Part shown: piece after piece, positions 2,771-46,765 of the stretch
How positions within the stretch are numbered: the first letter of the stretch is position 1
Layout: each line of letters opens with the position of its first letter
Origin: Rotaria socialis
Lineage: Eukaryota
Reading direction: 5' to 3'
DNA length: 49,272 nucleotides
Assembly: GCA_905331485.1 (NCBI GenBank)
Contig: CAJNYT010000219.1
Span: forward strand, 1-49,272
Made by a program: the position numbers and the translations under genes
Notes under the pieces: generated by a model
What the model saw: only the letters and a program-made list of their open reading frames with translations
What the model was told of the DNA's origin: nothing
The model's database searches: none

Positions 2771-3560
2771 TTAGATATAATTATTTTCTGTAACATAAAG
2801 TTAGACAAGTAAGTAATCATTCATAAGCAGTAACAAATTGTTTTCATGACACACTTGCCAAAAAAGTCCATAGTGGTCCATAGAGTATGATTAAAAAGAA
2901 TAAGTAAATGAGCATTAATTGAATACATGGATATCGACTATTATCTAGATGTGATACATATCGGATGATGCATAAAGAATTATTCCTGTTGTGTTTTTGG
3001 TATTTTTCCTGTATTATCCTGTTAAGTCAAAATTTCTTTTAATCAAAGATAACACTTGCAATTCTACAAAAAATTAAGTAGCCTATTTAATTAATATATA
3101 TATAGCTTCTTCCATTTTACTGGATTCACATCAATTGTACAGTTAGATCGAATATAAAATGTAAATTTCTTATTTTTCTCTTTTTCTCACGACAGACTAT
3201 ATTTCGTCTACCGATGTTGCCGTTGTGATAGCATGATCTCAATAGATAGCTTCAATCAATTAATTCTAGGGTATGCGTGTCGGTGTAGATGTTATTTAGT
3301 TATTTTTGCACAATCACACCCACACCCTCAAGAAGTTAAGAAAAAGATGTTTAATAATTTCTAAGTTTTGCTCGTCAAAGCTTTGCTCGCATGTTGAATG
3401 TTCTTCTTAACTTTAATGATTGCGTGATGATTGTCTTCAAATGTTTTGTGGTAAATAAGCAAAGCTTTTAAAAAACAATGGAAGGTTTGCGGATAGTTTC
3501 CAGTTGAAAAATGAATACTTCCTGTATTGTTGTAAATAAAATCAATAACAGGGCCTTGAG

Positions 3561-3620
3561 GGTGTGGGGTGTACATATATTTATCACCTATAAATACACA
3601 TCCACACCCACACCCACACC
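3561..3620. repeat. Inverted telomeric-repeat module: (TGTGGG)n - 22-bp filler - (CCCACA)n
   Basis: gggtgtggggtgt ... tccacacccacacccacacc; a smaller cacacccacaccc tract lies at 3315-3327. Confidence 0.85.
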
Positions 3621-4279
3621 AACGATAAAAAAGGATATATAACTGTATAAATTTATCAAACAAGACTCGATGTAATACCATTTGTGTCTGAAACTGTTTT
3701 TACTTTTTTCAGAGAGCTCATATTCTAACCAAGTTTACCATTGTAAATGGTAATTAGCAACAAAGTTTAATAAGGTTATGCCATACATGGTTTTACTCAT
3801 CGATTCAAATAGTTCTCTCTCTCTCTCAAGTTAGATTAGGAAGTTCTTCTGATTAGAATTTGACTTTCTGCGTCGATTTGTACAAGCAGATTTTTCTATA
3901 GCACATAATTAGTTTCAAGTAGTACCGTTTGATCGCTCTTGGGTGTTCCTGTATTAATGGTTTTGAGCGGAACACAAATCAACATTCACATCTACAACCC
4001 ATTCGAAATATTTACAAGCCCTGTTGTTTTTTTTTGTGAAGTTTATAATAGAGGTCAATAACGACGAAAACATCACACACACAATCTTGTTTATTTAAAT
4101 CTTAATAATGTAGATTCTGGTGGGGGTTCTTTTCACGCATACCCTCCCCCCCCCCCACTAAACCCTAAATTTCTGTCTCCCCGTCTCTCTCTCTCTCTCT
4201 GTGTTGTCGATAAATCAATATGTAGTCTTGTTTTTAACAGTAGCATCCAGTCAAAACTAGTGTGATAGTATTTCGGTGA

Positions 4280-5362
4280 TCAAATTGATCTATCTATTAC
4301 TTGGTTGTTTCTTGGGCCTGTACCTATCAGCACCACAGGAATGCCTGTTTCACGTTCCATCATTTCTATATACTGCTTGGATTTTTCTGAAAGCTGATCA
4401 TATTGTGTGATACCAGCATCATCATAGTTGATATACTGTATGAAGTTAACTGCCAATTTGTTAACACCTGTCAGTTTCACTGCACGTTTGATACGATTCA
4501 CATCAATTTCAAATACCCGTCGTAATTTCTTAGTAACAGTTGTTAATTCTTTCGAAGAAAATGTCCCAATAGGGGCACCTGCTCGTTGTTCTACTTCTTC
4601 CCATGTGATTTCTTTTCCACCATCCCCTGAATATGCTTCACCTCCATCAGATTTAGCCATGTCATTAGAAATACGAATTGGATATGTACGAATGACACCA
4701 TAGATATCTCGAATATGTTTCGGAGGAATACCGTTATCTGAAAGTCCTTGCATTGGTGAACATTCTCTGCTGGTACAATGTGGATATTGAAAACCATGAT
4801 TAATACCTAATTCAAAACCTTGTGCTATTTCTAAAATACCTGTTTTTCCTTGTTCCAAATCATCGCAAGCCATTTCAGCTGTGTCTGCCAAAAAATTCGA
4901 CCACTCTCGAATGTCATGCATTAATTTATGATCTGGATGCCGCATTACTTTGAATGCACTAGCTGCACCAACACCTTTAAATGTACTTCCAGAGCGTATA
5001 TTCTCCTTTTCCCAATCACGATGTGTTTGTTGGATAACCGATGCTCTTGGATGAATAAAAAGACGGCCTTTTGCTTTTTCTTTGCCGCCAAGATACTGAT
5101 CAACTTCATTTTCAAGCTGTACCAAATCGATAACAGCGCCAGCACCTATATATAATTTCGTACTATCATTAATTAACGCTTGTGGCAACTGTTGGAAAAC
5201 ATATTTGGTGCCATCTTGTTTTATTACCGTATGACCTGCTTGTACACCATAGCTTTCAATAGCAAAATCATATTTGTGCTTTGTAGCTAAATATCCACCA
5301 ATAAGTCCTTTCCCGCACGATCCAAAGCAGAGATCAAGAATAATATCCAACGATCGTTCCAT
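4280..5362 (-). CDS. Short-form adenylosuccinate synthetase family protein (archaeal PurA / PurZ-type length), 360 aa, single exon
   Basis: Colinear with PurA throughout: 'QAGHTV' matches the NAGHT His motif, 'KGVGAASAF' the GTTGRGIGP region, 'LEIAQGFELGINHGFQYPHCTS' the EGAQG..DHGTYPYVTSS block, and the C-terminal 'EYDKLTEKGKAFI..ERVGVPV.IISTGP' of archaeal PurA aligns with 'QYDQLSEKSKQYIEMMERETGIPVVLIGTGP'. At 360 aa it has the archaeal/PurZ size, not the ~450 aa eukaryotic size. The N-terminal P-loop reads 'FGSCGKGL' where the canonical sequence is 'WGDEGKGK'. A true ATG (cat on the plus strand at 5360-5362) starts the ORF, and it has no intron. Confidence 0.8.
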   Translation of the reverse strand: MERSLDIILDLCFGSCGKGLIGGYLATKHKYDFAIESYGVQAGHTVIKQDGTKYVFQQLPQALINDSTKLYIGAGAVIDLVQLENEVDQYLGGKEKAKGRLFIHPRASVIQQTHRDWEKENIRSGSTFKGVGAASAFKVMRHPDHKLMHDIREWSNFLADTAEMACDDLEQGKTGILEIAQGFELGINHGFQYPHCTSRECSPMQGLSDNGIPPKHIRDIYGVIRTYPIRISNDMAKSDGGEAYSGDGGKEITWEEVEQRAGAPIGTFSSKELTTVTKKLRRVFEIDVNRIKRAVKLTGVNKLAVNFIQYINYDDAGITQYDQLSEKSKQYIEMMERETGIPVVLIGTGPRNNQVIDRSI

Positions 5363-6863
5363 CTGAATGCGTACCTAAAGTTGAACAAATATACATCATA
5401 TCATATAACAACAGCTATAGTGTTATTATGTGTGTACAATTGTTCTAAATAACAACGTATGATACAATACGAATGAATTCAAGTCGTAACCATTTTTCAT
5501 TATACAAAGCATTGATTGAGAGCTCTCATGTTAGTCATTTAAAAGTATCCAATTTAAAAAATAATGGTCTAAGATGATTACAAGGTAACTAAACAGATCT
5601 ATGTTTTTCTATAGGTTTCATAGGGCCTATTAGGATCTGCTAGAATCAAGCAGAGTCTAAAGGCTCGATTAAACTTCATAGAATCAACTAGCGCCCTCAT
5701 TATATGGATTCTATCTGAGGCTTTCGTGATCCCCTCACCCTAGAGATAATATATGTTGTCTTCTCTTCCATCCTCGTTCTGAAGAGTATTACAGACTCTA
5801 GCAAACCCTGTTAGATCCTGGGGGGGGGGACTATTATGACTTATTACATAAATTATATAGAATAGAATTGTTATGGAGTTTATTTGTGCCATTCAGTGAA
5901 AACCAATCTAGAAGCTAATCCCATACGTCACAGCCATCTCATCAGTTTTAATCCAAACAGAAATAAAGCTAAGACGACGAATAATATGAAAACCACAAAG
6001 CTATTTGCATGTAAATATATTACTTTAGAAGCAGTCTCGCGCTTCCCATCTCTACTATGTTTAAAATTATGATATCATCTTTCCGCTGAAAGTTGTTTTG
6101 CAGATTTTTATTGATGCATTTCAAGCAAAAGAAACATTTTTTTTAAAAAGGAATACAAACTGGGTACTATGAAAAGAAAAGTAATCCTACATTTTCTTGT
6201 TATTTCTCGTAAATTCGTTTTGATAACTAGTGTTTTGTCTTCACCTAGCTTGTATCTTTGCTAGACGTTGACATACCTCTTCGTTTGTTCTTTCGGTAGG
6301 AAGCACCTTTATATATATATATAAGTCGATATCTTGGAAATTTTCAGTATATCTACAAAACAAGGGAAAAAATCATGGCTATAATATGGATGGTATTGGC
6401 CAGCCCAGTGCTGGATCAATGTTTATTTATTTTATTTCTTTATGTCACTCTCATCATAATCAATTAGGTATCCGTATCACCAATATCAGTAACTTTATTT
6501 TTATATTTAATTAGACGGGCAATTTTCTTACTCATCGCATTTACCTATTCTTTTTCTTCTTCTCCATTAATAGACAAATATACTATATGTCTTTTACTTT
6601 TACTGACCGAAAACACAACACATGTAACATATGTTATTCGATGTCTATACAGATAATGAGGATAGAAATGCAAAAAAAAGAGAAAGAATTGGGGAATATA
6701 TGCTATCAATTGGGACACTTTCTCTTCTTTTCTCTAGTATATGTGTCTATTAATGGAGAACAAGAAAAATAATAGGTAAATACGATGAGTAAGAAAGTTG
6801 CACCATCATATTAAATAAGAACAAGAAAATTACTGATATAAGCGATACGGACATTTTATCACT

Positions 6864-6958
6864 GGGCGTGGGTGTGGGTGTGTGGATGAAGCAGAGAATA
6901 TGCAACACCCACACCCACACCCACACCCACACCCACACCCACACCCACACCCACACCC
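6864..6958. repeat. Inverted telomeric-repeat module with the longest C-strand tract, about 9 x CCCACA
   Basis: gggcgtgggtgtgggtgtgtgg - 19 bp filler - (cacccaca) for about 54 bp. Confidence 0.9.
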
Positions 6959-7575
6959 TGGTATTGCACGAAGTCTAGCACACTTCGAAACTTCTAAATG
7001 GTTTCACTCGTTAGTATGATTATAAATGCTTCTTTTGAAAGAGGTGAATAATAAACCCTTCTAATCAAAATATGATATTTACAACTCTAACTCTTAATTC
7101 TGTCTCATTTTTTTATGATGTACATTAAATAGATCAAAAAATGAGCATTGAAAAATATTTTAAAGACAAAAAGAAAATATTATTAAAATTCGAATAAAGA
7201 ACACTTGCCGAATTTAACCTTACAAATTCCACTGTTAAGCCACACATTTGCATTATGTTTGAAGAAAACAAATAAAATTTAAAATGAACATCTGGTTTAT
7301 TGAATATGTGAGTGAGAGAAAAGACAGCGCATAACTTATTTGTTAAACTGATAGATTGAAAAAAAAGAAAACCCTTAAAATGATCACTCTATCAATAAGT
7401 ATATGAATGCAGTGACGAATTCGAAAGTACCAAAAATTGGTAACATGCAGTAGAACGCATAGGCGCAGAAATTATTCAAAAATTGGATAGTCACTACATA
7501 ACAATTTTCGGGATTATATGCAAGCAGGTAACACAAAATATAAACATATCGTAAATTAAAAACACTAATAATAAA

Positions 7576-9954
7576 TTAGACTTCTTTAAATAATATTCCG
7601 TAGGGTCGAACATTCTGTGAATTGTTACACGTCCATATATCTCGATTGTGCTTTGCGATCGAACTATTATTAATTCTCACTTGAAACATAACTTGCAATT
7701 GTCGGCCATTGTATGGTGTTGGCCTAGAGTAGTGTCTACTCCCGGAATATGATGGATTAGGCGATAAATATATGCCTCGACCATGAGCAGAACCATTAAC
7801 AATAGGTATCCCATTACTACCTCCAGCAATTAAACCATTACGTAGTATAGCTAAAGCATTGGCAGTTGCAGTACCATGATAAGCTACAGGCCATGCATCT
7901 TTGCCCTCCGCTAGCCATTCAGCATTTTCATATTTTCCAAGTACTTTAATAGCCTTTCTATACCATCCGCATGGCCTTGTATAAGGTTCTGGTCCACGTT
8001 GAAAAGTTCGACCGGCATCATTTCTTGTTGTAAAATCGTAGTCGTAAGTGCTATCAAGAAACTCTTCATCTAGCATAACACGATTTACAAAACGATTAGT
8101 CCGAGCAGTAGCACTTGAAAAATGTGGAATATAAGCTGCAATTGAACTCTGATTGTATTGATAAAATCGAACGTTTTGATCATCTTCCCATCGATTTATA
8201 TCATTATCAATATTCCAATAACTTAATCGAATACTTTCAGGACATGTATATTCAGATGGTTCATTTATTATTAATAGTGGACAATGCTCTTTTTTATCAC
8301 TAAATTGAATATGATCAGCTTTGAAATGAATAACTGATATAATTCGATTATAATTTTCTTCTAATGTTCCTTTGTCCGGTACATAATCTTCGTTTTTCCA
8401 TACAGTATTTGGTAAGGATTTACTTACTACGGACTTTGATTCTGATTCTTGTGCTATTTTATATTCCATTATTCGAGAAGAATAATACATAACAGCATTA
8501 CTTTCATACATATCAGCCTTTTCACACTGAGGACACTTTATTTTTACAGTAGAATTAGACTCTTGTTTAATGGTTGATGTTAGTTTATCATTTAATCTTT
8601 TACAGCACTGGTAACAAAATAAAGCTGAACAATTTGGATTAAGACATAATCTATGTTTTTCAGGTATTAAACGACAATATAAACATTCTAAAGCCGAAGT
8701 TCCTTCCATTTCAAATTTATCAATAATTTTTGATTTACGGTATTCTGATAATCGAACTTTCTTGTAACATGTTGGACAATGATGTTCATGATTTGTATTA
8801 TCACAACTGGATTCAATACAAATGCGACAAAATACTTGTGTACAATATGGGCATTCTAAATTATCATCATTAAGTTGTGATAAACAATTTAGACATTCAG
8901 GTTTATCTATGAAAATTAATGAAGATGTTGACGGTTTATTAATTAAAGTAGCTGAATTAAAATCCGTTTCAACTGCTTGTGCTAAATTAGTTTCATTGGA
9001 TGGCGTTTCTTTTTTTGAGGATATAATTGGATTTGACTGAGTAGGATTTATTTTCTTAATGTTAACTTTATCAATCTGATTATTCAATTCATTGATTTTT
9101 GTTGATATCTTCATCCAATTGCATGATGATTTTAAATTATCGATCAAGAAATCGTTGCTCCCAATAGAAATTGTTGTTGATTTTTTATTTCCAATTGTTT
9201 GTTTTGCTTGCTGGGCGGATTTAATCACATTGATGGTCTCAACTGGAAACATTAAAATAATTGTATTATTATCCAATCGAGCTTCACATTCATAATTTAT
9301 TATAGCAAATTTATCCTTATTGATGTCTGAAACTTTTTGACAGCGATCACTAGGTTGGACTGCATTAATCTGAGATGACCCTATATCTCCGTCGACGATA
9401 GTATCAGGCTGAATATTAAATTTTAATTGAACAATAGAACCAGGATTAATTCCTAAATCCAACATTGGAATATATGCATTTTTATTTAATGAGTAATATT
9501 TTCCATTAGCCATAATTCCTTGCGCATAGCGACCGTCGCAACATCTTACTTTACAAAATTGAGATAACAATAAACGATCATAGGGTAATGCTATTAATAA
9601 TGGATAATCATATATTTGGACTGATTTGAACATGGCCGTTTTTATTAATTTAATATGTGACACGTCAGCATTAGCTGAAATGAATATTTTTTCTAGTAAT
9701 TCAAAGTAATTTTCTACATTCATTGTAATTTTTTCTGATAAATGATTAGTTTGAATCATTTTACCAATATGTTGACATAATTTATTATATCTGAGTGGAT
9801 GAATTAATTGGGACGAAGGAATAATTCCCATTTTAATTTCAGTTATTGGCCAATATCTGAGATCTTGATCTTTACTAACAGCGCTAATAGGTTTATTATA
9901 ATCAGAATTTTCACTTTCTAATTGATTAGTGTTATCGGCAATTAAATGAAACAT
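7576..9954 (-). CDS. Large (792 aa) protein with several Cys-rich zinc-finger clusters (RING/IBR/B-box-like) and a C-terminal PARP-type (H-Y) ADP-ribosyltransferase-fold segment
   Basis: Cys clusters 'CLNCLSQLNDDNLECPYCTQVFCRICIESSCDNTNHEHHCPTC', 'CLYCRLIPEKHRLCLNPNCSALFCYQCC' and 'CPQCEK'. The C-terminal 'WPVAYHGTATANALAILRNGL...GSAHGRGIYLS' matches the PARP H-G-S/T ... IL..GF ... G-x-G-I-Y-F pattern. The ORF stops before the third catalytic position of the ART triad. True ATG start. Confidence 0.6.
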   Translation of the reverse strand: MFHLIADNTNQLESENSDYNKPISAVSKDQDLRYWPITEIKMGIIPSSQLIHPLRYNKLCQHIGKMIQTNHLSEKITMNVENYFELLEKIFISANADVSHIKLIKTAMFKSVQIYDYPLLIALPYDRLLLSQFCKVRCCDGRYAQGIMANGKYYSLNKNAYIPMLDLGINPGSIVQLKFNIQPDTIVDGDIGSSQINAVQPSDRCQKVSDINKDKFAIINYECEARLDNNTIILMFPVETINVIKSAQQAKQTIGNKKSTTISIGSNDFLIDNLKSSCNWMKISTKINELNNQIDKVNIKKINPTQSNPIISSKKETPSNETNLAQAVETDFNSATLINKPSTSSLIFIDKPECLNCLSQLNDDNLECPYCTQVFCRICIESSCDNTNHEHHCPTCYKKVRLSEYRKSKIIDKFEMEGTSALECLYCRLIPEKHRLCLNPNCSALFCYQCCKRLNDKLTSTIKQESNSTVKIKCPQCEKADMYESNAVMYYSSRIMEYKIAQESESKSVVSKSLPNTVWKNEDYVPDKGTLEENYNRIISVIHFKADHIQFSDKKEHCPLLIINEPSEYTCPESIRLSYWNIDNDINRWEDDQNVRFYQYNQSSIAAYIPHFSSATARTNRFVNRVMLDEEFLDSTYDYDFTTRNDAGRTFQRGPEPYTRPCGWYRKAIKVLGKYENAEWLAEGKDAWPVAYHGTATANALAILRNGLIAGGSNGIPIVNGSAHGRGIYLSPNPSYSGSRHYSRPTPYNGRQLQVMFQVRINNSSIAKHNRDIWTCNNSQNVRPYGILFKEV

Positions 9955-10016
9955 AATTAATTGTAAAACTGAAATGGACTCATTTTCTGATAATAGTGTT
10001 TTTGATTCTTTACGTT

Positions 10017-10688
10017 CTAATAATAATAATCGGATTTATGAATAATTAATAATCGAAATGGTGGTAATGCAACACGATTTAATCGAAAAGAAAGTTTTAA
10101 AATTTCTTCGTATAATTCTTTTGCTTCATTTTCTAATGAAATCATTATATTTTCATATACTAATACATAATCAGCAAGATCAACAGGTATTGTGTCAATG
10201 TTATCACTATATAGTATAGTGGATAATATCAGATGAGCTGCACCAATAGTCATAGATTTCGGCAACCAAATCGATTTTAATTGACTATTTTTTGTTGTAG
10301 AAGATAATGAATTTAATGATTTAACTGAATAAATTTCATATTTAACCATACCAGCATCAGTGGTCTGATTTATATTATTAACAGTAATAAAATTACTAAA
10401 AGTTGTATAGAGATCATTGACAAATTCGTGTAAGATTGGATTGCCTTTTAAGTCTAAGACTTTTGTTTGTGCTTGTTGTTGAGATTTCTCAATTGTTTCT
10501 TTAACTATTTTACCGTGATCTTTTGATGAAAATGAATTAAAACAATACTTTTCACTTTCAAATAATGCTTTTAATATATTGACAGTTGTTGGGGTGTCAT
10601 AGATAATATTACTTATTGTGTTGTTTCGGTTATTCGCATTAAGATCATTAGTATCGCTTTGATTGGGAACAGTGGAGGAATTACCCAT
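10017..10688 (-). CDS. 223-aa ORF with an MGNSS N-terminus (N-myristoylation-type motif); unknown function, possibly a separate upstream gene or 5' partner of the 7576..9954 gene
   Basis: Uninterrupted ORF on the same strand immediately upstream of the 792-aa ORF. True ATG start. No recognisable domain. I could not find a usable donor that joins it in frame to the downstream ORF. Confidence 0.35.
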   Translation of the reverse strand: MGNSSTVPNQSDTNDLNANNRNNTISNIIYDTPTTVNILKALFESEKYCFNSFSSKDHGKIVKETIEKSQQQAQTKVLDLKGNPILHEFVNDLYTTFSNFITVNNINQTTDAGMVKYEIYSVKSLNSLSSTTKNSQLKSIWLPKSMTIGAAHLILSTILYSDNIDTIPVDLADYVLVYENIMISLENEAKELYEEILKLSFRLNRVALPPFRLLIIHKSDYYY

Positions 10689-11451
10689 TTTTTATTCGTT
10701 CGTAGGCAGAAAATCTGAAATTGTAGTCAAACTATAAAAGTAATACTAACATCGGATTAACTATAAAAATTTTGTGCTAATGATTCGAACAGAAACTCTT
10801 CTAATCGTCGTCCTTCTTCTATCTTAAGAAATTAAAAGACAAAAAGACCGCTTGATAACAGATAAAGAAGAATATTAAAATAAATAGAAGGATGTTTTCA
10901 TATTATCTAATCATTGCTGCTAGATCCTAATAGATATATTTGGCATTTGAATAGATAATTTTAACTTGTGTTCAATATCATATAACACTGTTGTATGGAA
11001 AAAATTTTTATTGCCAACGAAAAATCGTCAACCCACTTGTTTGAACAAGAATTTAAATATTTCAATTTTTTATTGTAGTGTTTTTTATGGGTCACCCTGT
11101 ATATAAACGAAACGAAAAGAAAAATGTAATATGAATCATTACTAACAACAAGAGACATGAAGAGAAACTCAAGGACACGCATATATAGTGAAATCTATAA
11201 TAAAGAAAGTACCAATAGTCTCCTCTGAACACAGTACAGATCATAACTATCTAATATAGATGAATAAATTATGAATATATCAGTGGCTGGCATGTGTAAG
11301 ATTTGCATAACTTGATGCAACCTAATTCACATATTCTTCAGTTCTATCTGAGTCGATTGAATGTAAAAGCTTTTCAGAATAAAGTAAAAATCATGCCAAC
11401 TTTAAAAAATTATTTCCTATGTAATGTTAACTGGCTGTCTCTTGTTTCAGC

Positions 11452-11508
11452 GGATGTGGATGTGTGTGCGCTATCTTTAACCCAGCCTACGCCCACACCC
11501 ACACACCC
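11452..11508. repeat. Degenerate inverted telomeric-repeat module
   Basis: ggatgtggatgtgtgtgcg ... cgcccacacccacacaccc. Confidence 0.6.
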
Positions 11509-11542
11509 TTATGATACTTGACGTCTCTTATTGATCCTTGTA

Positions 11543-12551: not shown

Positions 12552-12797
12552 TCTGTGGCTGGAAGAAAGAAAAAAAAGAAAGGAAATGAAAGGAAATGAA
12601 AGGAAAGAAAAGAAGGAGACAATGTTGGTTAACTTCTGTTATGACACGTCTATAAGCTGTGTCATAAGATGAAAGGTATCACCCAAATATCTTGAGGATG
12701 TGTATAGTAAACAGAGACGTGCACAGGATATAATTTTTTCTCCTGCTCTTGCCTGTCCTGTTACCTACCTTGGTTCTGGTGGGCGGCAGGACAGGAG

Positions 12798-12867
12798 AGG
12801 GTGTGGGTGTGGGGTGTGTAGAGGTGGATGTGTGAGGTGATGCTTCTCTTCACTCACACTCACACCC
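12798..12867. repeat. Inverted telomeric-repeat module
   Basis: gggtgtgggtgtggggtgtgtagaggtggatgtgtgaggtg ... cactcacactcacaccc. Confidence 0.8.
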
Positions 12868-13387: not shown

Positions 13388-13510
13388 ATGTGGGGAGTGT
13401 GGTGTGGGTGTGGGTGGGTGTGGGTGTGAGTGTGTGTGAATCGCCAAACAAAACACCTATAGGGCACCCACACCAGCACCAACTCACGCCCATACACCAA
13501 CACCCACACC
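13388..13510. repeat. Inverted telomeric-repeat module (long and degenerate), abutting a TIR element
   Basis: G-strand 13388-13438 (gtgggtgtgggtgggtgtgggtgtgagtgtgtgtg), C-strand 13466-13510 (cacccacaccagcacc...cacccacacc). Confidence 0.8.
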
Positions 13511-13516
13511 AGAGAC

Positions 13517-14460: not shown

Positions 14461-14475
14461 TGATCCACACCCAGC

Positions 14476-14545
14476 TTTTGTTAAATTATTTATTAAATGC
14501 CAAGATTTATTTTTTCTGATCGATAGAATGGTATTTGTGTATTGA
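14476..14545. repeat. Dispersed ~70-bp repeat; second copy at 619-690
   Basis: 'gcttttgttaaattatttattaaatgccaagatttatttt(t)ctgatcgatagaatg' at both sites. At 14475 the homology starts exactly after a CACACCCA telomeric tract. Confidence 0.75.
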
Positions 14546-33000: not shown

Positions 33001-33100
33001 TTTGCTTTACATGGAGTAACGCGTAACCACATTAGTTATCACACGATTCTATTGAAAATCGATCATAAAATGGAGACGTTCGCAGATTGATTATTTTCAG

Positions 33101-36100: not shown

Positions 36101-38538
36101 CTATCGGTATTGTCGATGAAAAAGTTGAATTCAGTTTCAAAGCATCGATTCGAATGCCCTATAAAATAACGAAATTATTTTCCCCAACACATCATCTACG
36201 TCGGAAAGTAACCGATTGTATAGCTATGATTGAACTTGTTGATAATGTCTTAATTGATCAAGATTTTATTCTTTCGATCACACTCAACAGTCCTAATTTA
36301 CCTCGAATAGCAAATGAAACATTGCCATTGGATGGCAACAGTGAAACAACTGACACATCGAACAGCCATCAATCTCAAACATGTATGCTTACCTTTTATC
36401 CACGATTCGAAACATTGACGACTTCGAAAGAACAAGTTGAAATTATTTTCATTGTTGATCTATCAAATTCAATGGATGGCAGTCACGTACAGCAAGCTAA
36501 ACAGTTAGCTCATTTGTTTCTTACGAATTTGAAAGTTGAAGATGAGAATACATATTTTAATGTAATTACTTTTGGATCAGGTAATAAGATGATATTCTAC
36601 AGCGTTATTGCGCATTCAAAACACTATAACGCTTTCAAAATATCATTTGATTTTGATGAAATTTCGCACACAGAATCGTCTCATCAATATTTCGAGCAAG
36701 TTCGAGGATGACAATGATTCGCAGTGGGTTATACTAAAAAATGCCATTATTTCCTTCGTTTTCTCTATGGGAACATTGGCCTATCCAGGTTACGTGGACG
36801 CACTTTTTGGTCCTCTAGTACTATATTATGAAAATCAATTGAAATATTATAGTGAAGTATATTAAGTCATACACAAAGGTAAGCTATCTCAGCTTGGTTT
36901 CTGAGATTCAGAAACAGGCACCTAAATATTACAAGATTTTGCACAGTCACGAAGATCTAATGGATCGCCTTGACCCATGCGACGTGATATATACCGTTCG
37001 ATAGAGAATTTTACGGGCTAAAAAAATGATCAGTCTAGATAATTAGGCTGGGTCATCGTAATCAGCCGAGTTACTTTTTGAAGTACATATAGTATTAGGA
37101 TCTACATTTATTTTACTATTGAAATTGCAACTATTTAGATAACGATGAATGTTTTCCTATGTCAGCACCAACTACAAAAGAAAATCTCGATAAAGCCAAA
37201 CACTTTGTTCTAGTTAGTAGTTTATTTTTTGAATCTGATTTTTCTATTGAAATATCCGTTTTCATAAATTCTAGCATTCACGTGTCCATCGTGGTAATAC
37301 GGATCTATTTGCTGTCCTTCAACGTTATTCGTTATTACGATCGTCGTTATCGTCGAAATTTGGCCGTCAAATCGTTCTTTTATCCGATGGACATATTCAC
37401 GACCTCAATTCAATTCTGGCTCTACTCAAACATCGACCAACTATGCGTCGTGATCGTTTGTTTACATGCTCAATTGGTAATGTTGCAAACAAACATGTTT
37501 TGAAACAGTTAGCTAATGGAGCAAATGGAGGTGGTCTAACAATAGTATTCGATTCAAACTATCGATCGAAGTGGAAAACAAAAGTATTTAACATCCTCGA
37601 ACAGATTCGACAACCGTGTGTAACAAATATATCAATCGACTGGCATGGCTGTTTGAATAAAGAGCAAAAACTCAATATGCAAGCACCGAAAAAGATTCGA
37701 TCTTTGTTCAATGGAATGCGACTTACTGTTTATCGATTCATAGAAAATTGTCACAAGGCAACATTGGCGGCTACTATTGACGAACAAGAATTTGTTACGA
37801 CTGTATTTAGTAGTGCAATGACAACGACCAGAGGACGTATTTTACACTGTCTAACCACTCGAGCGATTATTGATGATTATGACAACGGGCTATTGGATGT
37901 CGACGAGAGCGAAAACGAATTGATCAAAGTTCAATACAAACGAGATCTCATCGATCTCAGCATCAAACATTCTGTTGTCAGTAAATACACTAGTTTTGTT
38001 GCCATCGAAGAACGTGATGTCAACACGGATATAAAAACTGTTCAACCAGGTTAGTAAAATAATAGCAGAAAAGCAAAAATTTATCTGTATGTTTCTTACA
38101 CTATGGATCAAAAATCTTACTAGCACCAAAATTGAAGTATCTACATCACTATTGAAACATGTACTCTCTGTTATAGGTGTTCGTTTGCTTGAAGTTATGC
38201 TGGAACGCGATGTTGACTTACTACCATGCATGGGATGGGATGGTGATGTTTCAAATTTGACTTCAATCAAACAGAAATTGGCCGATGCGCGTATTTCACT
38301 GGAATGTGCATCGATTCAGGGCAAAAAAGAAACAATTGTTGATATTGAAAAACTTTGTCAAAAAGTTTCCTATCGAGCAGGTGGTGATGCGAAATTTGCT
38401 ATCATGATGGCTATCATACGCACATATCGACATTCATTGAATGATTACGATAAAGCAGATGAACTAAAAGATAAAATGCAAAAGGGTATGCTAATTGATC
38501 TAGGACCAAAATCTACATATATCGAATTTAAAAAATGA
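33101..38538 (+). CDS. Vault-PARP (PARP4)-like multi-exon gene: BRCT - PARP catalytic - VIT - vWA, at least 10 exons with 45-75 nt introns
   Basis: BRCT-like exon 33101-33313 continues as '...YKIRRAKRLGLPVVNVEYVHKC'. PARP signature exons follow: 'ALKCHIETVASSTFDFKNIAKLIQ', 'QWQLFHGSKYVNFLGILSR', and after a 60-nt intron 'GLVMPK...GYGIYFSDSASTSLKY...LLCICQVALGES...EGFINYD'. The VIT domain reads '...AQIVDVT|VVLYQVYHNTSSIPIEAKYVFPLDENSTVCGFEAHINNKVIKGVVKEKEQAKREY'. vWA reads 'EIIFIVDLSNSMDG...NVITFGSG', and the exon from ~37274 gives '...IVLLSDGHIHDLNS...RLFTCSIGNVANKHVLKQLANGANGG' (VWA5A/ITIH-like). Exact exon borders were not all resolved. Confidence 0.7.
34514..35378 (+). CDS. PARP catalytic-core exons of the PARP4-like gene (H-Y-E type)
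   Basis: H-G-S in 'LFHGS', G-x-G-I-Y-F in 'GYGIYFS', and an E in 'SEMLEGFINYD' corresponding to the NEYIVYD block. Donor GTAAAA after 'tcacg' and acceptor 'cgtacgtttag' (60-nt intron) keep the frame. Confidence 0.65.
35683..36711 (+). CDS. VIT domain plus the first half of the vWA domain (largest exon of the PARP4-like gene; 3' border may be the GTAATAAG donor at ~36581)
   Basis: The VIT consensus is reproduced. The vWA MIDAS-type 'DLSNSMDG' is followed by '...ITFGSG'. Confidence 0.65.
   Translation: MFLSNEKVVLYQVYHNTSSIPIEAKYVFPLDENSTVCGFEAHINNKVIKGVVKEKEQAKREYREAIEKGHGAYLMHQEEAQVFSVAVGNLPAHTEVIIKIIYVAELEIENDDIIFRLPAKMTSWQSKKAVETKDQSILRSIGIVDEKVEFSFKASIRMPYKITKLFSPTHHLRRKVTDCIAMIELVDNVLIDQDFILSITLNSPNLPRIANETLPLDGNSETTDTSNSHQSQTCMLTFYPRFETLTTSKEQVEIIFIVDLSNSMDGSHVQQAKQLAHLFLTNLKVEDENTYFNVITFGSGNKMIFYSVIAHSKHYNAFKISFDFDEISHTESSHQYFEQVRG
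37274..38054 (+). CDS. Distal vWA-domain exon of the PARP4-like gene
   Basis: The open frame from 37275 aligns with VWA5A '...LFVFTDGEVTDT...FSFGIGEGTS...LIKGIARASGG'. A probable acceptor 'ttctag' lies at ~37268-37273. Confidence 0.6.
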
Positions 38539-39770
38539 ATAGATATAATGACCGAAATGATTAGTGCAACCGTAGAAGAACGGCAAGCATTACAGCAACA
38601 ATGTCTAGCGAACAATTTAATAATCACAAATGACGAATTGTAAGTGAAAGAAAGGAAAGAAACATTTAAAAATTATTTCGTGTATCCTTTCTCTTGCAGC
38701 GGATCATTAATTAACTACGATGGTAAGAGGGAAACTCGGTCATTCTACTTCGGAAACGGTGGTAGAAAGCTTCGGTGAAGTGACATTAAATGGAACCACT
38801 TGGATGTTTTGAAAGAATTATATAGTCTAAATTTAAACCCCGACCTATACTGAGTAGAACATGTTAAGATCATCACAATGAATACCGCGTTGAAAACGTG
38901 TAGGTGGTTTTCAGAGAAATGTTTATATTTCATTTTCATAGATTTGATTCGTATGCTTGGAGCTGGTTCCAAGGATTTAACAACAGTTGAACAAATGGAT
39001 AAGGTAAGAAAGCTAGTTATACAATGATGATAAGCACCCGATTTTATTAATGAATTATTTATATCAACAGCAACATAAAACCTCTCAACAATACCTTAAA
39101 ACCAATTTCCAACTACAGATAACATGAAGATAAAGGTGCGTGAGTGAAAGAGGGATCATCACCACAGCTACACCTTGACTGGCAAACAAATTTTCCTATA
39201 AGGGTCTTTCGTTCGCAGTAAACGTATCTCCAAAATACTTTATGCAGCTGAGTTGATATTGATTCCGATGCTAAGCCGTTGTTGTAGAAAGAGTATGGTA
39301 AACAATAGAGCACAAAACATCAAACTGCGGGCGATTCGTGGGTGGTGCCAAAATCAACAAAGAATCTATATTGACGTCAGATAAATCTTTCGCTACAAAA
39401 TACACATGTTTCAGGATAATATTAAATAAAAGGCAGCATTGATAGTGCTTAGATGTAATTATTGATCTGTGAAGTAACATGATTTAGTGATTAAAAGCAA
39501 AATTGAGCTTTATTCAGGGTAATCTTATATAAAAATCTGATGGTTTTTCTCAAAACTGGTGTAAATATTTGAAAGGGAAAAAGGAACAGTTTATTAAGAA
39601 AAGGATGGCTTTGATTGATATAAATACAAGATGTATGTATTTCGAAAGAAGAGACTTCACATTCACAACATGTCTCTATAGAGAAACAATCAACTTCTTT
39701 TAAGAGATCTATTGATTCCTTGCTGATACAAGGTCTTCCGGACTATAAGCATAATAAATCAAATAGGAAT

Positions 39771-39826
39771 GGGGTGTGGGTGTGGGTATGTCTTTTTCAG
39801 CGCATGCCGACACCCACATCCACACC
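39771..39826. repeat. Inverted telomeric-repeat module just upstream of the calmodulin-like exons
   Basis: ggggtgtgggtgtgggtatg ... cgacacccacatccacacc. Confidence 0.85.
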
Positions 39827-39968
39827 TTCAATTTAATCTGCTTTAAGTATTTGTTAAATTTTCAATAACAACAATTCCTGTTGAAATTTTATTATTATGA
39901 TATCAGTTGAATAGGGATGAAACGGCATAGAAAAACTGTTGTGTACCCCTAAGTATTATTCATTTTAG

Positions 39969-41675
<1,707 letters not shown>

Positions 41676-42479
41676 GTAAGATCAAACAAAGATCTATTTA
41701 AAGAACAATGTACAGGTTTCTTCGATAACTAGCGTTCGTCCAATCAGAGTATTCCAGCTTGGAATCTAAACCAATTACGGGTTTTCAGTGTTGGATTTCT
41801 GACGAATAAGATTTCGGCTGTTTGAAATTTCAGTTGTTGAAACGTCTTCAGGAAAAAACAAACGACAATTTCACAGCGACGTTTCACTAGCGTAAACATA
41901 AAGCATCTTATTTATAGATATATGTGCCTTTGCCTGCTTACTGTCAGGTACCTATTGAGGACTCTTACATCATAAATCCGGTAATTGTTTTCAGTTAGCG
42001 AAACACGAATATGTTTGGTTGTGAATACGGGAGAATAAGTTATTGTGAAAGTAACATTCAACATGGGGATTCCATTAATAAAAAAAACTCCACTTTAACG
42101 CAGTTTTATAGCAAGACCGAGAAAAGAATTGTGTGCATATTTGAAGCAGAGATGGCCATGGCTTGAGTTCGTAAATTTTGAACCGAAGCGAAACTGAGAG
42201 AAATTCAAGTAGAGCTAAACGACTAGCTGTTTCATTTCAGTTCAAAAATAGCTCAAAATTAAAAAAAAGATATGCATCAAGATACAGGAAACCACAGATA
42301 GATTTCATCTGAATTATAAAACATAGTCAAGTTAGCCTATTTTCCACCATCTTGATGCCTTCTAGCAGTTTTCAGAAAACTGTTTTCTCAGATGACTTCG
42401 AAGAAGGAAAAATTGAGTATAATCCACGTAAGTACCATTCATATCTCATTTGATAGAGTATATAGCGGTAGTAAAAATC

Positions 42480-42740
42480 TCAAAAGCGCTTTGGTCCATG
42501 ACTTTTGAAAAGTTATACCCCTTTTAGTGAATTTTTGACCTATTCCTAGGTATGCACTAAAAAGATAAAATTAAGCAATTTCGATCTGAAACTTTGCCCT
42601 CGGATTAGTCTAAGAACCCTTAGAATATCGTGAAAGTTTCAGATCGAACTTGCTTAATTTGATTTTTTTAATAAATATCTAGGAATAGGTCAAAAAATGC
42701 AGTGAAAGGACCATAAATTTTGAAGAAAGAGCCATGGGTC
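42480..42740. repeat. ~260-bp foldback / MITE-like palindrome
   Basis: 'gacctattcctaggtatgcactaaaaagataaaattaagcaatttcgatctgaaactttgccc' versus its reverse complement at 42633-42700. The outer 'ggtccatgacttttgaaaag...' arms are also mirrored. Confidence 0.7.
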
Positions 42741-43740
42741 GAAACCATTGTGGGCTTTTTACAAATATACTTTTAGCATGATAATATATTCAAAATATCA
42801 GCTTCAACTATTTTTTCAGGGACATATATGGATTATTCTTATATCGAATTGTTTTTTGACATATGAGATTTGTAGATTGGCATGATGTAGACATTTAATT
42901 TAGCACTGGAGTATCTGTGATAATGTTTTATAGTTTATTGCAGCTGTAGTCAGCGAGGAAGAGTAATTAATTTGATGTAATGGTTTGGTTTTTTATTAAA
43001 AATGAATAATTTATGTGTCACTTCTCTAGACAGTAGTATTTTTTAGCATGGCAACTACCAGAATTCCGATCGAAAATAAGTGGTTTGCAACAAGAATCAT
43101 TAGAGGAATATGAAAAGGCTGATTCAGATAAGGGCAAGGGCACTGACGCTGGCGATGGCAATAGTTTCAGTGGCGATTTACCTTCGCTTCGGTTTACAGA
43201 CACTCGTGGGCCTTCGCCGATGAGTCATGATTTTCCCACTTGGAAGACCACTCTAGATAATGGAAATGAACGCTTAAAAGAACCGACTGGTCTTAATATA
43301 TTTTCGAAATTAGAAGATCAACCGGTACCAATATCTACTGTTTATAACAAACTGGCAGGAAAGAAGAAGAGAGGTAAGGTCATCATTATTATCAAGCTTA
43401 TTACATTATATCCGTTATAGGGTCATTGTCTGCGCCACTATCAGGGCTATCACTCGAACCGCCTCCAAAACAATCAAGTAAGATTTGAATAATAGATTGT
43501 TTGTATACGATCAAGAGTTCCGAATGTTGTACACTTATTTCCGAGAAGAAAACAGCAATTTATGAATTTGATTGAGTTTTAGTGATTTTTGCCCGATATT
43601 TTAAATTCAGAGTTACTGAGACTCCATCGAGTTTACAAAAAGTAATTAAAAGTTAGAAATGTTATGTTTCGACTACTGTCACTGATAAGTAATATTCGTG
43701 TTCTTATTCATATTATTGCTAACCTTTCCCTAACGAAAGT

Positions 43741-45178
43741 TTGAAGTTTACAAGTTCAGAAAATTACCTTTACATGAATGTGAATAACGGTGAATCTTCC
43801 TGTTACGTATATCTACCCTTACATTCGCACTCTCTTAAATATTTTTGCTGGAGTAGAAAGAACGATGGTAAGAAATTGAGCTATCAAAGTGCGGCACCCT
43901 TATTAGTTTGTTGCCAGCTGTGCACATTAAACATGCTACGTTCTGATTTGCTATCCATGTTAGGCGTTGAATTGGCAGAACCATTCGATTTTTACGGCCT
44001 TATCACTGATACTTCTGCATGGGCTTCTCTTTCTTTTCCCAAGCCACTGTCACCAGACATATCATGTCGAACAATATCATCCTGCACTAATGACAGCTAT
44101 ATGCCATCTCCAATAGCATTAAAACCGAACCCAAGTGTTGGTAAGTTAGAACCACATAAATTTCTCGATTACTTTAATTAATGGATCATGAACATAGAAC
44201 CATCTTTAGAAATGTCGTCATTTGGTGGTAGACACGATAGCATACAAGTTGCTACAAGTGAATCAAAAAGCTCGGAAGAAGCGAATATGTCAACGAAAAA
44301 ATCAGTTCGATACACTAAAGTACGTACATTAAAATGCAAGTTTTACAGAAACATCATCCAATTTTAGGAGCACCGATATGACGATAGAACGATAGACTTT
44401 GCACGTGAAAGTGCGCAACCAAAATCCACGATTTGTAAACAGACAAGAGAATTAGAGACGTGAGTTTTAAAAGGCTTGACGAGGATATGCAATGATTCGT
44501 TATTGATTGTCATTTTCGATCGATGGCTCTTTCTTTTTAATGATAACGAAATGAAAATTTAGATTTATGAAAATTTAGATTTCGAAGACAATTTGCACTT
44601 AATTTAACGTCCAACATATCTGTCTGTAATCTACTTCTTCTGGACGTATGCCCACTTGGTCTGGGCATCGAAGATATTAAGGGTGAGATGCATACATTGG
44701 TACGCCGTAATACAGTTATTCCAACGCGAACTCAACTTTATCCTATATTCACAAATGCTTATGCCTATCAGGCAACAGCTACCATTCGAATATTTGAAGG
44801 TGAACATTATCTCACAAAATACAATGTATATAGTGTTCTAACTTCATAAATTTTATTTTCTAATCGTCCTCTATTGCAGAGATTATTGGGCGAGTTTAGT
44901 CTTCCTGGTCTAACAAGCAACTTCTCTGCTCAGACACTCGAAATAGCTATTCGTATGGATATTGATGCTAATGGGATACTTCATGTCGATGCTGAAGAAG
45001 CACGTTCGGGCGCGAAAGCTTCGTTTATTCTTGGATCTGATCAGCAAAGTTCGACAATTACTCAGATATTTCATACCATCGCTAAATGCCTTTTATATTT
45101 ATCTAGGATTGAGCAAAAATGATATTGAGCGACATATTGCATATGTAGAAAGTGATGCAAATGTTGCAGCTAAATCTG
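43741..45178 (+). CDS. Divergent Hsp70-family protein (NBD subdomain IIB through SBD-beta and lid start), multi-exon
   Basis: The NBD-like exon ending at 44140 contains '...LLSMLGVELAEPFDFYGLITDTSAWASL' (Hsp70 '[20 protein letters not shown]'). The SBD exon ~44590-44825 reads 'NLLLLDVCPLGLGIEDIKGEMHTLVRRNTVIPTRTQLYPIFTNAYAYQATATIRIFEGEHYLTKYN'. Exon 44880-45048 reads 'RLLGEFSLPGL...LEIAIRMDIDANGILHVDAEEARSGAKASFILGSDQQ'. Exon 45107-45178 reads '(R)LSKNDIERHIAYVESDANVAAKSG'. All junctions are in phase. The N-terminal ATPase exons were not recognised. Confidence 0.55.
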
Positions 45179-45835
45179 GTTAGTGTGTAAAAAGGATAAA
45201 TGATGTTCAATTATTGTTATTTTGTAGTTCATGATCACAAACCCAATGATCGATTGTATTTAGTTCGTATTATGTCATCTTTTCATAGTTCGATTGTTCA
45301 CTTTTTCTGTTTTTTCTCAGCTGGCTGGCCAAATTACATCTGTAATACGTGACTTTTCTGGTGAACTTATAACATCATTCGGTAATTTGTCCTTCGTTGT
45401 TGTTTGAAAGATATAGCGAAAATGGTGTATGAATTCAGGTCAAACAATTGGTGCTCCACTTCTCATTCAACTGAAAAATGTTCGATTTTCAAAAACGTTA
45501 ACTGAAGAGCTCATCAAAATTCAATCTGAGGTAATTGATACTATTTTCAAGTCTTATTACCAAATCATTGTTTTGCATTTGATTCGAACATAGGACGGTT
45601 CATTTACGTTGAATAAAGATTTAGCTGATATACTTCATGTCAATGTTGATATTTTCGATGGCCTAGAACAATACTTACGCGCACTAGGTTTTAACTCGCT
45701 CGGTAAGATCGTAAGATTTATTATAGAGATATGACCTTTAATTTTTTTTTAGCTTTGAACACACAAAATGAAATTCTTCGTTTAATTGGTACAGGTGTCA
45801 TTCTGTTTTGGCTCGCTCTTCAAATGCAAGACTCA

Positions 45836-46031
45836 CCACAAAACACGTGTCCATTTTTATTTAACATTGAACAAATCAAAGTGAATTGATTTTTTCCAAT
45901 CTTTGCAATTTATATCCTACTCTCTTTATGTTGCCACAAAACACGTGTCCATTTTTATTTAACATTGAACAAATCAAAGTGAATTGATTTTTTCCAATCT
46001 TTGCAATTTATATCCTACTCTCTTTATGTTG
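45836..46031. repeat. Perfect tandem duplication, 2 x 98 bp
   Basis: 'ccacaaaacacgtgtccatttttatttaacattgaacaaatcaaagtgaattgattttttccaatctttgcaatttatatcctactctctttatgttg' occurs twice, head to tail, with no mismatch seen. Confidence 0.85.
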
Positions 46032-46667
46032 CTAAGGCTTTTCTCTGCAATCATTTATCTGCTAACACAAGTGAAAAACTTGACAAAGCGATCGGATTCT
46101 ATCAACAAATAAGTCAACGTAATCGTATCTATTGTAAACAATTAGAATTGAGCGATTCATCATGGGACATGTTTATTCAACGTATAGTTATCGGCATCGA
46201 TCATGGCGATAACTAAAAATTGATTTTCAGTGCCATCGATTGTTTTAATAATTTAACCATTACACTTTTATTATTCTAATCATGAATCACATCGATATTG
46301 TTTATTCTTGAGCACAAAAAAAAGCAAAGCATTCAAGCGTGCCGGTGGAAATGTGTGAGGGTAATAGTAAACATAAGGCGTACATCCTCATGTTTTTCAT
46401 GAGTCAGGTGTTGGAAAAAGTAGTTGCAAGAATCCTCAGTGCAAATTTTGGCGCGTTAGTAATTATGCTTGGCTTACGACTAAGAGGCATTGCACGTAAG
46501 CCACGACCAATTGCCACAGAACGTTGCTCAATGAATTTCACTGATTTGAGTGATCTTTTTACTGTGGGTAGATACCATAAAGTTATGGAGAGTCCCAAAA
46601 TTTCAACTCAAACGAATAAGCCGTTCCCGAAATATGAGTTTTGAAAATATGGAAATTTCAAAAAAAG

Positions 46668-46765
46668 GGGTGCGTGTGTGGATATTCCTGTAATTTGTTG
46701 TCACACCGAAACGCACGCTCCAGGCCCCCGACACACACCCGTCTACGCACCCGTCTACGCACCCA
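46668..46765. repeat. Degenerate inverted telomeric-repeat module inside a GC-rich island; contains an 11-bp tandem duplication (acccgtctacgc x2)
   Basis: ggggtgcgtgtgtgg ... cgacacacacccgtctacgcacccgtctacgcaccc. Confidence 0.55.

Follow-up and report, generated by a model that had tools for sequence, protein, structure and literature searches.

No other animal is as rich in foreign genes as bdelloid rotifers, which also withstand massive breakage of their DNA, but we know of no described molecular mechanism for the incorporation of such broken or foreign DNA into their chromosomes. According to Nergadze and colleagues, telomerase reportedly inserts short interstitial telomeric sequences during double-strand-break repair. 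Head-to-head loci make up 3 of 41 in vertebrates and have been explained by the action of a second telomerase on the opposite side of the break (PMC8537989). In fusion-type interstitial telomeric sequences, such as human 2q13, facing arrays mark the joint of former ends (PMC7215372, PMC8537989), and in cancer genomes neotelomere formation can be followed by fusion of the new end to another end (PMC11293586). Bdelloid subtelomeres contain short TGTGGG stretches among foreign genes, repetitive-protein genes and transposons (PMC2861651, PMC8494291), and telomeric repeats occur at deletion breakpoints in lines of Adineta vaga (PMC13564844). We found no description of the paired, single-polarity arrangement with a spacer reported below, or of doubly capped blocks; an earlier description is possible in the original papers on bdelloid telomeres (PNAS 2007, Science 2008, MBE 2017).

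We analysed a window of 49,272 nt from the bdelloid rotifer Rotaria socialis, in which 26 telomeric tracts were called as 12-mers with at most one mismatch to the repeat. Tracts no more than 100 bp apart were counted as adjacent pairs. All 10 pairs found under this strict call place a G-strand array before a C-strand array, head to head (0 C→G, 0 G–G and 0 C–C), and M3, whose G arm is degenerate, brings the number of modules to 11. Random placement and orientation of the 26 tracts gave a mean of 1.5 adjacent pairs (0.4 G→C), with a maximum of 5 in 20,000 trials. Read on the plus strand, each module consists of (TGTGGG)n, an unrelated spacer of 16–49 bp (median 24 nt across the 11 window modules) and (CCCACA)n. 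The G–spacer–C pattern and exclusive polarity of the original prediction are therefore real, but its count of at least 12 loci falls to 11. The end of its span, 46765, does not mark a telomeric locus either: positions 46736–46765 were rejected as telomeric and are a CACCCGTCTACG 12-mer repeat.

The 11 joints lie within 36 kb, 10 of them within 25 kb beside a conserved gene block. M1 (3557–3623) has its G arm at 3557–3572 and its C arm at 3597–3623, separated by 24 nt, with a hairpin z of −3.7; M2 (6863–6959) follows with a G arm at 6863–6885, a 17-nt spacer and nine perfect repeats in its C arm (6903–6959). The degenerate G arm of M3 (11452–11508) spans 11452–11468 and faces a C arm at 11489–11508 across 20 nt. 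M4 (12797–12867; G arm 12797–12818, C arm 12851–12867) has a 32-nt, partly degenerate spacer. In M5 (13389–13511), a long degenerate G arm (13389–13438) and a 26-nt spacer precede a C arm at 13465–13511 that resumes at 14465–14473, past an inserted element of ~950 bp (13512–14464). This element, whose termini are GAGACCGTCACAGGGCA and its complement (16 of 17 terminal bases match inverted), has C-strand repeats on both sides and is a secondary insertion, separate from the module. Further along are M6 (21253–21304; G arm 21253–21264, 24-nt spacer, C arm 21289–21304), M7 (23099–23161; G arm 23099–23120, 25-nt spacer, C arm 23146–23161), M8 (24861–24956; G arm 24861–24884, 49-nt spacer, C arm 24934–24956), M9 (25437–25497; G arm 25437–25453, 27-nt spacer, C arm 25481–25497) and M10 (27724–27780; G arm 27724–27746, 19-nt spacer, C arm 27766–27780). 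M11 (39771–39826; G arm 39771–39790, 16-nt spacer, C arm 39807–39826) is intronic. Two-sided modules outnumber solo tracts, of which there are about seven, among them a C-strand tract at 3314–3330 (TCACACCCACACCCTCA) with no G partner to its left, two G tracts at 20778–20791 (abutting a foldback element) and 20955–20968, a C tract at 23417–23428 and a degenerate G tract at 47105–47120.

Module arms are 12–57 bp long and are decaying by point mutation, and all 11 modules fold into hairpins with stems of 9–20 bp. As had been anticipated, the fillers are without common sequence, sharing only decayed repeat fragments such as CACCTATA. No template for the spacers was found within ±300 bp of flank, and no telomerase-RNA-derived sequence is common to them. 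Filler is present at every junction (at least 9–10 bp), an unusual trait if classical end joining made them. Repeats start in all six phases (counts 9, 8, 6, 4, 4 and 4), and no target-site or flanking duplications were found at the modules.

The blocks that the modules delimit are not all the gene-sized cassettes that had been proposed. They range from 0.2 to 12 kb, with some flanking blocks of only 226–521 bp; 4 of the 10 blocks between modules hold exactly one gene and about 4 hold no recognisable gene. The smallest, a further block to the left of M1 (3331–3556, 226 bp), with the solo C tract at 3314–3330 as its left cap and the M1 G arm on its right, carries a fragment of a TPR gene of the ART-TPR family on the minus strand. 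Residues 49–89 of ORF 3361–3681 (minus strand) match Pfam TPR_12/TPR_10, and blastx matches the block to residues 440–495 of an R. sordida ART-TPR protein (E = 5e-5). Because this internal fragment is repeat-capped at both ends, breaks were not confined to intergenic DNA.

Of the four single-gene blocks, that at 3624–6862 holds one intronless PurA/PurZ-type gene (4280–5362, minus strand; Pfam Adenylsucc_synt, 8e-42), whose product is a short adenylosuccinate-synthetase-like protein. Among proteins of solved structure, it is most closely related to the 363-aa 6fko/6fm1 group, 7odx (labelled PurZ) and the 339–340-aa 5k7x/2d7u, which we take to be phage PurZ and archaeal enzymes. A PARP-like gene occupies the block at 6960–11451 (ORFs 7576–9954 and 10017–10688, minus strand; Pfam PARP) and has an R. 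magnacalcarata orthologue with 95% amino acid identity and a homologue in Rotaria sp. Silwood1 with 71%. Between M3 and M4 (11509–12796) lies a WWE and ADP-ribosyltransferase gene (11543–12551, minus strand; Pfam WWE, ADPrib_exo_Tox and ART), which has a gene model in L004/L138 and a stop codon 34 bp from the M3 C arm. The fourth block (25498–27723) contains an intronless ART-TPR gene (25833–27707, plus strand; Pfam TPR families) that matches an R. socialis protein at 100% and ends with its stop codon 16 bp from the M10 G arm. Its homologues in Rotaria sp. Silwood1 and Silwood2, at ~80% nucleotide identity, have flanking modules of their own, placed elsewhere.

Comparison across six R. socialis assemblies showed M6–M10 to be byte-identical wherever both flanking anchors were found: M6 in the five assemblies covering the locus, M7 and M9 in six, and M8 in four. 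In R. magnacalcarata, M4 is identical and M3 has an orthologous module with the same spacer and 4 point differences, so that the two modules together differ at 4 sites in 128 bp, similar to the 2–4% divergence of their flanks. M3 and M4 were inherited vertically and are common to the two species. The identity of M6–M10 across assemblies, together with the presence of M3 and M4 in R. magnacalcarata, indicates that the modules are not assembly artefacts, a check that the original prediction had called for.

Against Silwood1, M3 and M10 reveal lineage-specific breakpoints. At M3, Silwood1 homology stops at 11451, within 2 nt of the G arm. At M10 it stops at 27723, where R. socialis reads TTAATAATG and then GGGTGTG, versus TTAATAATG and then AGAGTAAAA in Silwood1, which runs on for ~170 bp before a tract of its own. 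Beyond the R. socialis modules, the Silwood1 sequence that follows these two breakpoints is absent, and homology does not resume across either module. Judged from the alignments, homology that ends exactly at the outer edge of a tract is the classic footprint that breakage and de novo telomere addition would leave. The ART-TPR gene is module-flanked in three species and the PARP-like gene in two, with differing positions and neighbours.

We also counted polarity on a wider scale. Across 196 kb of non-redundant bdelloid loci, 20 pairs are G→C, none is C→G and 3 are G–G, bearing out the expected bias; the bdelloid sequence sampled came to ~240 kb in all, picked through gene homology. Non-bdelloid metagenome contigs with TGTGGG tracts contained 97 same-strand pairs versus 5 G→C pairs; since same-strand pairs dominate there, G→C pairing is not a property of the microsatellite itself. 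No modules were found at paralogue loci in A. vaga and D. carnosus or in a core region of R. socialis, which makes the phenomenon regional.

Modules had been expected to fall between genes, which is not always so: M11 is part of an R. socialis-lineage insertion of ~536 bp (39428–39963) in intron 1 of a calmodulin-like gene, composed of 343 bp, M11 and 137 bp. In a three-way alignment the insertion has no counterpart in two collinear relative contigs, L140 and L137, which thereby supply the orthologous empty site, free of repeats, that had been sought. More than repeats was gained between the flanks, as the insertion holds 480 bp of non-telomeric DNA. To produce M11, one step more is required: an internal break may have captured two tailed fragments, or a patch that already bore a module may have been copied in from elsewhere.

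The G→C geometry is to be expected only from two G-rich 3′ ends that point at one another, and we think that the modules are probably fossil head-to-head joints of two ends, each extended by telomerase before end joining. In the germline of the Rotaria lineage, a subtelomere-like region would have suffered repeated DNA breaks, perhaps triggered by desiccation-type breakage, and telomerase would have added 2–9 repeats to most exposed 3′ ends, from arbitrary positions. These short, uncapped neotelomeres would then have been joined head to head, leaving ~10–49 bp of unrelated filler between them. Pieces of 0.2–12 kb, including whole genes, gene fragments and non-coding DNA, would thus have been end-joined, often in a new order or place, and the joints inherited from then on as ordinary, neutrally decaying DNA. 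Telomerase, rather than another reverse transcriptase, presumably made the tracts, and end joining the junctions; filler may have been needed because two tails of G and T only cannot base-pair.

The simplest alternative, and the main model of the original prediction, is a scar made in place: both 3′ ends of one break are extended by telomerase and the same ends rejoined with filler, leaving gene order unchanged. The G→C geometry fits, vertebrate head-to-head interstitial telomeric sequences are explained likewise (PMC8537989), and the exons on either side of M11 are collinear in two relatives. The M11 empty site shows, however, that ~536 bp were gained, with 343 and 137 bp around the module; M3 and M10 have no Silwood1 continuation on their far sides, gene neighbours differ between species, and a doubly capped 226-bp gene fragment is impossible in this scheme. 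In-place scarring thus appears quite unlikely, and patchwork joining or capture of fragments, the serial route likewise put forward at the outset, is the better fit to the comparisons. Blocks might instead have accreted at a chromosome end, each cycle adding one block and one joint as telomeres fuse, the dicentric breaks hundreds of base pairs to a few kilobases beyond the joint, and telomerase heals the break. Terminal accretion predicts the same polarity and accounts for 10 modules in 25 kb beside the conserved gene block; the blocks come from typically subtelomeric gene families, and one Silwood1 contig ends in telomeric repeats and then modules. We nevertheless hold it to be unlikely: it offers no way to place the M11 insertion in an intron of a conserved, collinear gene block, it needs breaks very near every joint, and a gradient of tract decay along the array was not seen.

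The remaining explanations invoke elements or functions instead of joints. Athena/Terminon-type telomere-associated retroelements, or their fragments, could make the tracts if the C arm were the reverse-complement telomeric tail of the element RNA; Athena-type 3′ ends carry (ACACCC)n beside a hammerhead, attach to G overhangs and are telomere-capped, with host genes between (PMC6431247, PMC8557442). Yet no hammerhead family matches the window at E ≤ 10, and no reverse-transcriptase domain, Penelope-like or other, was detected in the 30 intact ORFs of at least 70 aa that were scanned against Pfam. Reasoning from the published mechanism, G-overhang addition and capping would give one orientation and not G→C pairs, and with spacers unrelated to one another this origin is highly improbable. 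Selection for functional hairpins (terminators, insulators, small-RNA hairpins, or programmed breakage and healing sites) in place of neutral scars would be consistent with the stems in all 11 modules, with the two genes ending 16 and 34 bp from a module and with the retention of M3 and M4 in two species. It is very unlikely, given that modules and flanks have diverged at a similar pace between R. socialis and R. magnacalcarata, that arms decay by point mutation, that positions are not conserved in more distant species, and that M11 is intronic and M5 split by a transposon. Finally, short inverted repeats around short spacers can mimic MITE ends or chimeric joins, as would arise from a transposon or MITE family with telomere-like terminal inverted repeats or from misassembly. 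The agreement between assemblies and with the sister species counters the latter; against the former, target duplications are absent, neither arm length nor start phase is constant, and the interiors, spacers as well as blocks, are unrelated. The earlier dismissal of a single transposon family stands, there being no mobile-element hallmark among the features above, and this last reading is extremely improbable, refuted as far as present data allow.

If the modules are head-to-head joints with telomerase signatures on both sides, they would form a readable and datable record of stitching events and mark the sites of lineage-specific rearrangements. The joints also suggest that, in these regions, telomerase and end joining are rivals for most ends. 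Being a simple sequence motif, the module moreover lends itself to genome-wide counts and to searches for de novo cases after irradiation or desiccation. A further, more doubtful possibility is that the Rotaria germline routinely caps both ends of free fragments, its own or foreign, with telomeric repeats and then end-joins these small linear molecules into subtelomeric arrays. Modules would in that event be the footprint of foreign-gene entry and shuffling, as for the short PurA/PurZ-type gene that M1 and M2 enclose, and their back-to-back telomere seeds could serve as preferred sites of re-breakage and re-healing. Should blocks include foreign DNA capped before integration, the route of bdelloid horizontal transfer would become directly testable.

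Set beside described systems, the Rotaria joints combine familiar elements in an unfamiliar density. Like the fusion-type sequence at human 2q13, they present G-strand and then C-strand arrays facing each other, but 36 kb of Rotaria DNA contain 11 joints where an ancient chromosome fusion leaves one, and here the arms are only 12–57 bp long, an unrelated spacer is always present, and the joined pieces are of 0.2–12 kb rather than chromosome arms. Ciliate gene-sized macronuclear chromosomes are short linear molecules with telomerase-added repeats at both 3′ ends, and, by analogy only, Rotaria blocks likewise read C-strand repeats, DNA, G-strand repeats; unlike the ciliate molecules, they now lie joined end to end within a chromosome and are known here only in that state. 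Comparison with an empty orthologous site shows the repeats of vertebrate telomerase-inserted sequences, like those of the modules, to have arrived abruptly. In vertebrates, however, one orientation is the rule and head-to-head loci are rare, whereas in Rotaria a single array in one orientation is confined to the ~7 solo tracts and found at none of the 11 paired loci, and flanks are usually not contiguous in relatives. Neotelomere fusion in cancer shares the proposed order of events (break, de novo telomere addition, fusion), yet is somatic and usually one-sided, with arrays of 0.6–1.7 kb, as against the germline, fixed, short, two-sided and serial joints of Rotaria. Rather than the distinct genomic mechanism first suggested, the modules are an unusually frequent, serial form of known processes (PMC8537989, PMC11293586).

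The window (66% A+T) carries 26 tracts of TGTGGG, the telomeric repeat of bdelloids (PMC7943196; PMC8494291), as called by scanning for 12-mers that depart from the repeat at one position at most. When tracts no more than 100 bp apart are paired, 10 pairs result, and all 10 run from G-strand repeats through a spacer to C-strand repeats (G→C); among the 26 tracts of the window we found neither reverse (C→G) nor same-strand pairs. M3 (11452-11508), in which the G arm is degenerate, makes an eleventh module, and about seven solo tracts lie beside the 11 modules. Simulations in which 26 tracts were placed and oriented at random (20,000 trials) gave a mean of 1.5 adjacent pairs, of which 0.4 were G→C, with a maximum of 5. 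The original prediction of a single polarity thus holds for every strict pair; its count of at least 12 loci is reduced to 11, and the end given for its range, 46736-46765, is an unrelated 12-mer repeat.

The same polarity was seen beyond the window. Among bdelloid loci totalling 196 kb of non-redundant sequence, neighbouring tracts paired as G→C in 20 cases, as C→G in none and as G-G in 3. A metagenome scan for (TGTGGG)3, aimed at environmental bdelloids, mostly returned contigs of other organisms with ~48% G+C, whose one use was as a negative polarity control: 519 kb of tract-bearing, mostly non-bdelloid contigs held 97 same-strand, 5 G→C and 0 C→G pairs. Many of these ~48% G+C contigs (within L016-L135, mainly the Ga03079xx series) contain numerous same-strand TGTGGG tracts, and evidently some other environmental organism uses the repeat abundantly; one metagenome contig (L100) has a long perfect palindrome of it in G+C-rich DNA. 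Loci around paralogues in A. vaga and D. carnosus and an R. socialis core-gene region contained no modules, so module occurrence is regional.

A 624-aa ORF at 25833-27707, 100% identical to an R. socialis protein, is present in six NCBI assemblies, which agree with the window at 99.7-100% over stretches of 15.8-37.7 kb. M6-M10 are byte-identical wherever both flanking anchors were found, in up to six assemblies, which answers the concern about assembly artefacts for these five. An apparent rearrangement in assembly L004 proved to be a scaffold join, because its junction holds an N.

All 11 modules can fold as hairpins, with stems of 9-20 bp. Their spacers are 16-49 nt long and, in keeping with the earlier reading, mutually unrelated apart from decayed repeat units at their edges; a weak excess of 7-8-mers that might have signalled a shared motif comes down to such units (CACCTATA/ATCCACAT). 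As templates for the spacers, the ±300 bp flanks did no better than shuffled controls, and the rest of the window offered only chance 11-12-mers. To the eye, tracts seemed to favour one phase at their outer junctions, starting with (A)GGGTGT, but this was rejected, all six phases being used. Nor do the modules derive from inverted duplication or fold-back, as their flanks are not reverse complements of one another.

Other elements lie among the modules. The C arm of M5 (13389-13511) is interrupted by a ~950-bp element (13512-14464) with 17-bp terminal inverted repeats (GAGACCGTCACAGGGCA), so that what looked like a solo C tract (14465-14473) is the remainder of that arm. In Rotaria sp. Silwood2 (L007, 14095), a similar start (CCACACCA|GAGACCG) also adjoins a C tract, and the element may belong to a transposon family targeting telomeric repeats. 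Positions 618-675 and 14472-14530 share a duplicated patch of 59 bp (98% identity); one copy directly adjoins the remnant of the M5 arm at 14465-14473, the other is 13.8 kb off in unrelated context, and the duplicate has the look of a repair patch that was copied. Inverted repeats of foldback or MITE-like type occur at three places, 19006-19349, 20611-20778 and 42532-42696, with arms of 140, 45 and 64 nt; in one assembly (L002) the first of them is inverted, and the second ends exactly at a solo G tract. A perfect tandem duplication of 98 bp (45836-46032) and a diverged tandem repeat of 112 bp (21727-21936; 77% identity) are unrelated to the telomeric modules.

The gene content of the blocks between modules was assigned by Pfam and PDB searches. 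M1-M2 holds a short adenylosuccinate-synthetase-like gene of PurA/PurZ type, M2-M3 a PARP-like gene, M3-M4 a WWE and ADP-ribosyltransferase (WWE-ART) gene, M5-M6 a caspase-domain gene together with a tRNA gene (20127-20198, minus strand; 49 bits), M9-M10 the ADP-ribosyltransferase and TPR-repeat (ART-TPR) gene, and M10-M11 a glycosyltransferase gene and a metazoan PARP4-like gene. In about four blocks, of 0.5-1.8 kb, no gene is recognisable, and the 226 bp from a solo C tract (3314-3330) to M1 are an internal fragment of a TPR gene. The description of the blocks as gene-sized cassettes therefore suits only 4 of the 10, and breakpoints also fall outside intergenic DNA. Stop codons can lie close to the arms: that of ART-TPR is 16 bp before the M10 G arm (27705-27724) and that of WWE-ART 34 bp from the M3 C arm (11508-11545). 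Judged against the Rotaria sp. Silwood1 homologue, ART-TPR has lost its original 3' flank. The PurA-like gene (4280-5362, minus strand) is an intronless 360-aa ORF whose best solved relatives are the 363-aa 6fko/6fm1/6tnh, 7odx (labelled PurZ) and the 339-340-aa 5k7x/2d7u, the 430-460-aa bacterial and eukaryotic enzymes not being among them. These relatives are phage PurZ and archaeal enzymes, so the gene is unusual for an animal and probably foreign.

Comparison with other Rotaria species places some modules in time. R. magnacalcarata shares the gene order and a 95% identical PARP-like protein, and has orthologues of both M3 and M4 (12797-12867) with the same spacers; 4 of 128 positions differ, about equal to the divergence of the flanks. 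These modules thus predate the R. socialis/R. magnacalcarata split and have evolved in a neutral-like manner. The R. magnacalcarata contig (L138) also carries a private 740-bp insertion (1934-2674, at window 12683/12688) upstream of the WWE-ART gene, and its synteny stops abruptly at window 13032, where there is no telomeric tract. In Silwood1 and Silwood2, ART-TPR homologues (~80% nucleotide identity) are likewise flanked by G-spacer-C modules, with spacers, positions and neighbours (hexokinase and FERM genes) that all differ from those of R. socialis. At M10 (27724-27780), R. socialis passes from TTAATAATG directly into GGGTGTG, whereas Silwood1 continues from TTAATAATG through ~170 bp more of unique sequence before its own tract; at M3, the match to the Silwood1 PARP-like locus ends no more than 2 nt from the G arm. 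When homology stops at the very point at which a telomeric tract starts, this is the classic sign of a break to which a telomere was then added de novo. Beyond M3 and M10, homology to Silwood1 did not resume.

M11 (39771-39826) differs in having empty sites. The block 32916-46285, comprising the PARP4-like gene, a calmodulin-like gene and the DNA after them, is collinear with two contigs of other bdelloid-like genomes (L137 and L140), both of which lack M11. The module sits in intron 1 of the calmodulin-like gene, whose exon 2 and EF-hand exons begin at 39973, and therefore does not fall between genes, the position proposed for the modules. The insertion is larger than the module: compared with L140, the intron of R. 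socialis has ~536 bp of inserted DNA, made up of 343 bp, M11 and 137 bp. A public gene model of ~2174 aa (33101 to beyond 40337) joins the PARP4-like and calmodulin-like genes across M11; a conserved ATG mini-exon near 39123-39136 suggests two separate genes.

Could a mobile element have produced the modules? Athena/Terminon addition yields, by its published mechanism, repeats of a single orientation (PMC6431247). Rfam searches of the window, at the gathering threshold and at E≤10, returned no hammerhead or Terminon signature, only the tRNA and sub-threshold miRNA-hairpin matches on modules; Pfam detected no reverse transcriptase in the scanned ORFs, and no target duplications were found at modules. 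Together with the six start phases and unrelated spacers, these results speak consistently against a mobile-element origin and agree with the earlier view that no single transposon family explains the array.

A G→C pair can only arise where one G-rich 3' end meets another head-on. The modules are best explained as end-joined broken ends: each end would have been extended by telomerase, and the extended ends then joined. As G+T-only tails cannot base-pair with each other, joining would depend either on extra nucleotides or on fill-in with subsequent blunt ligation, which suggests why filler is always present. The ends may have come together in one of three ways. Rejoining of a single break in place, as first proposed, fits poorly, since at neither M3 nor M10 does homology pick up again on the far side, M11 brought extra DNA with it, and one block consists of a gene fragment with a cap at each end. 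Repeated rounds of fusion, breakage and healing at the end of a chromosome account for the array but leave M11 unexplained. Joining or capture of fragments whose ends were already tailed covers all cases and is the more probable version. In aggregate, the core observation of the original prediction is real, several of its details were wrong and its interpretation is supported in part.

Related structures are known. Head-to-head interstitial telomeric sequences are a recognised mark of end fusion (PMC7215372); in vertebrates, rare short examples have been put down to telomerase activity at the two sides of one break (PMC8537989), and cancer genomes provide documented cases of neotelomeres that formed and then fused (PMC11293586). 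Among bdelloids, short telomeric stretches have been described in subtelomeres (PMC2861651) and, for A. vaga, deletion breakpoints that carry telomeric repeats (PMC13564844). What seems new, as judged outside the primary bdelloid telomere literature and with an earlier description possible, is the two-sided form itself: serial and dominant, with an obligatory spacer, bounding small blocks and recurrent in several Rotaria species.
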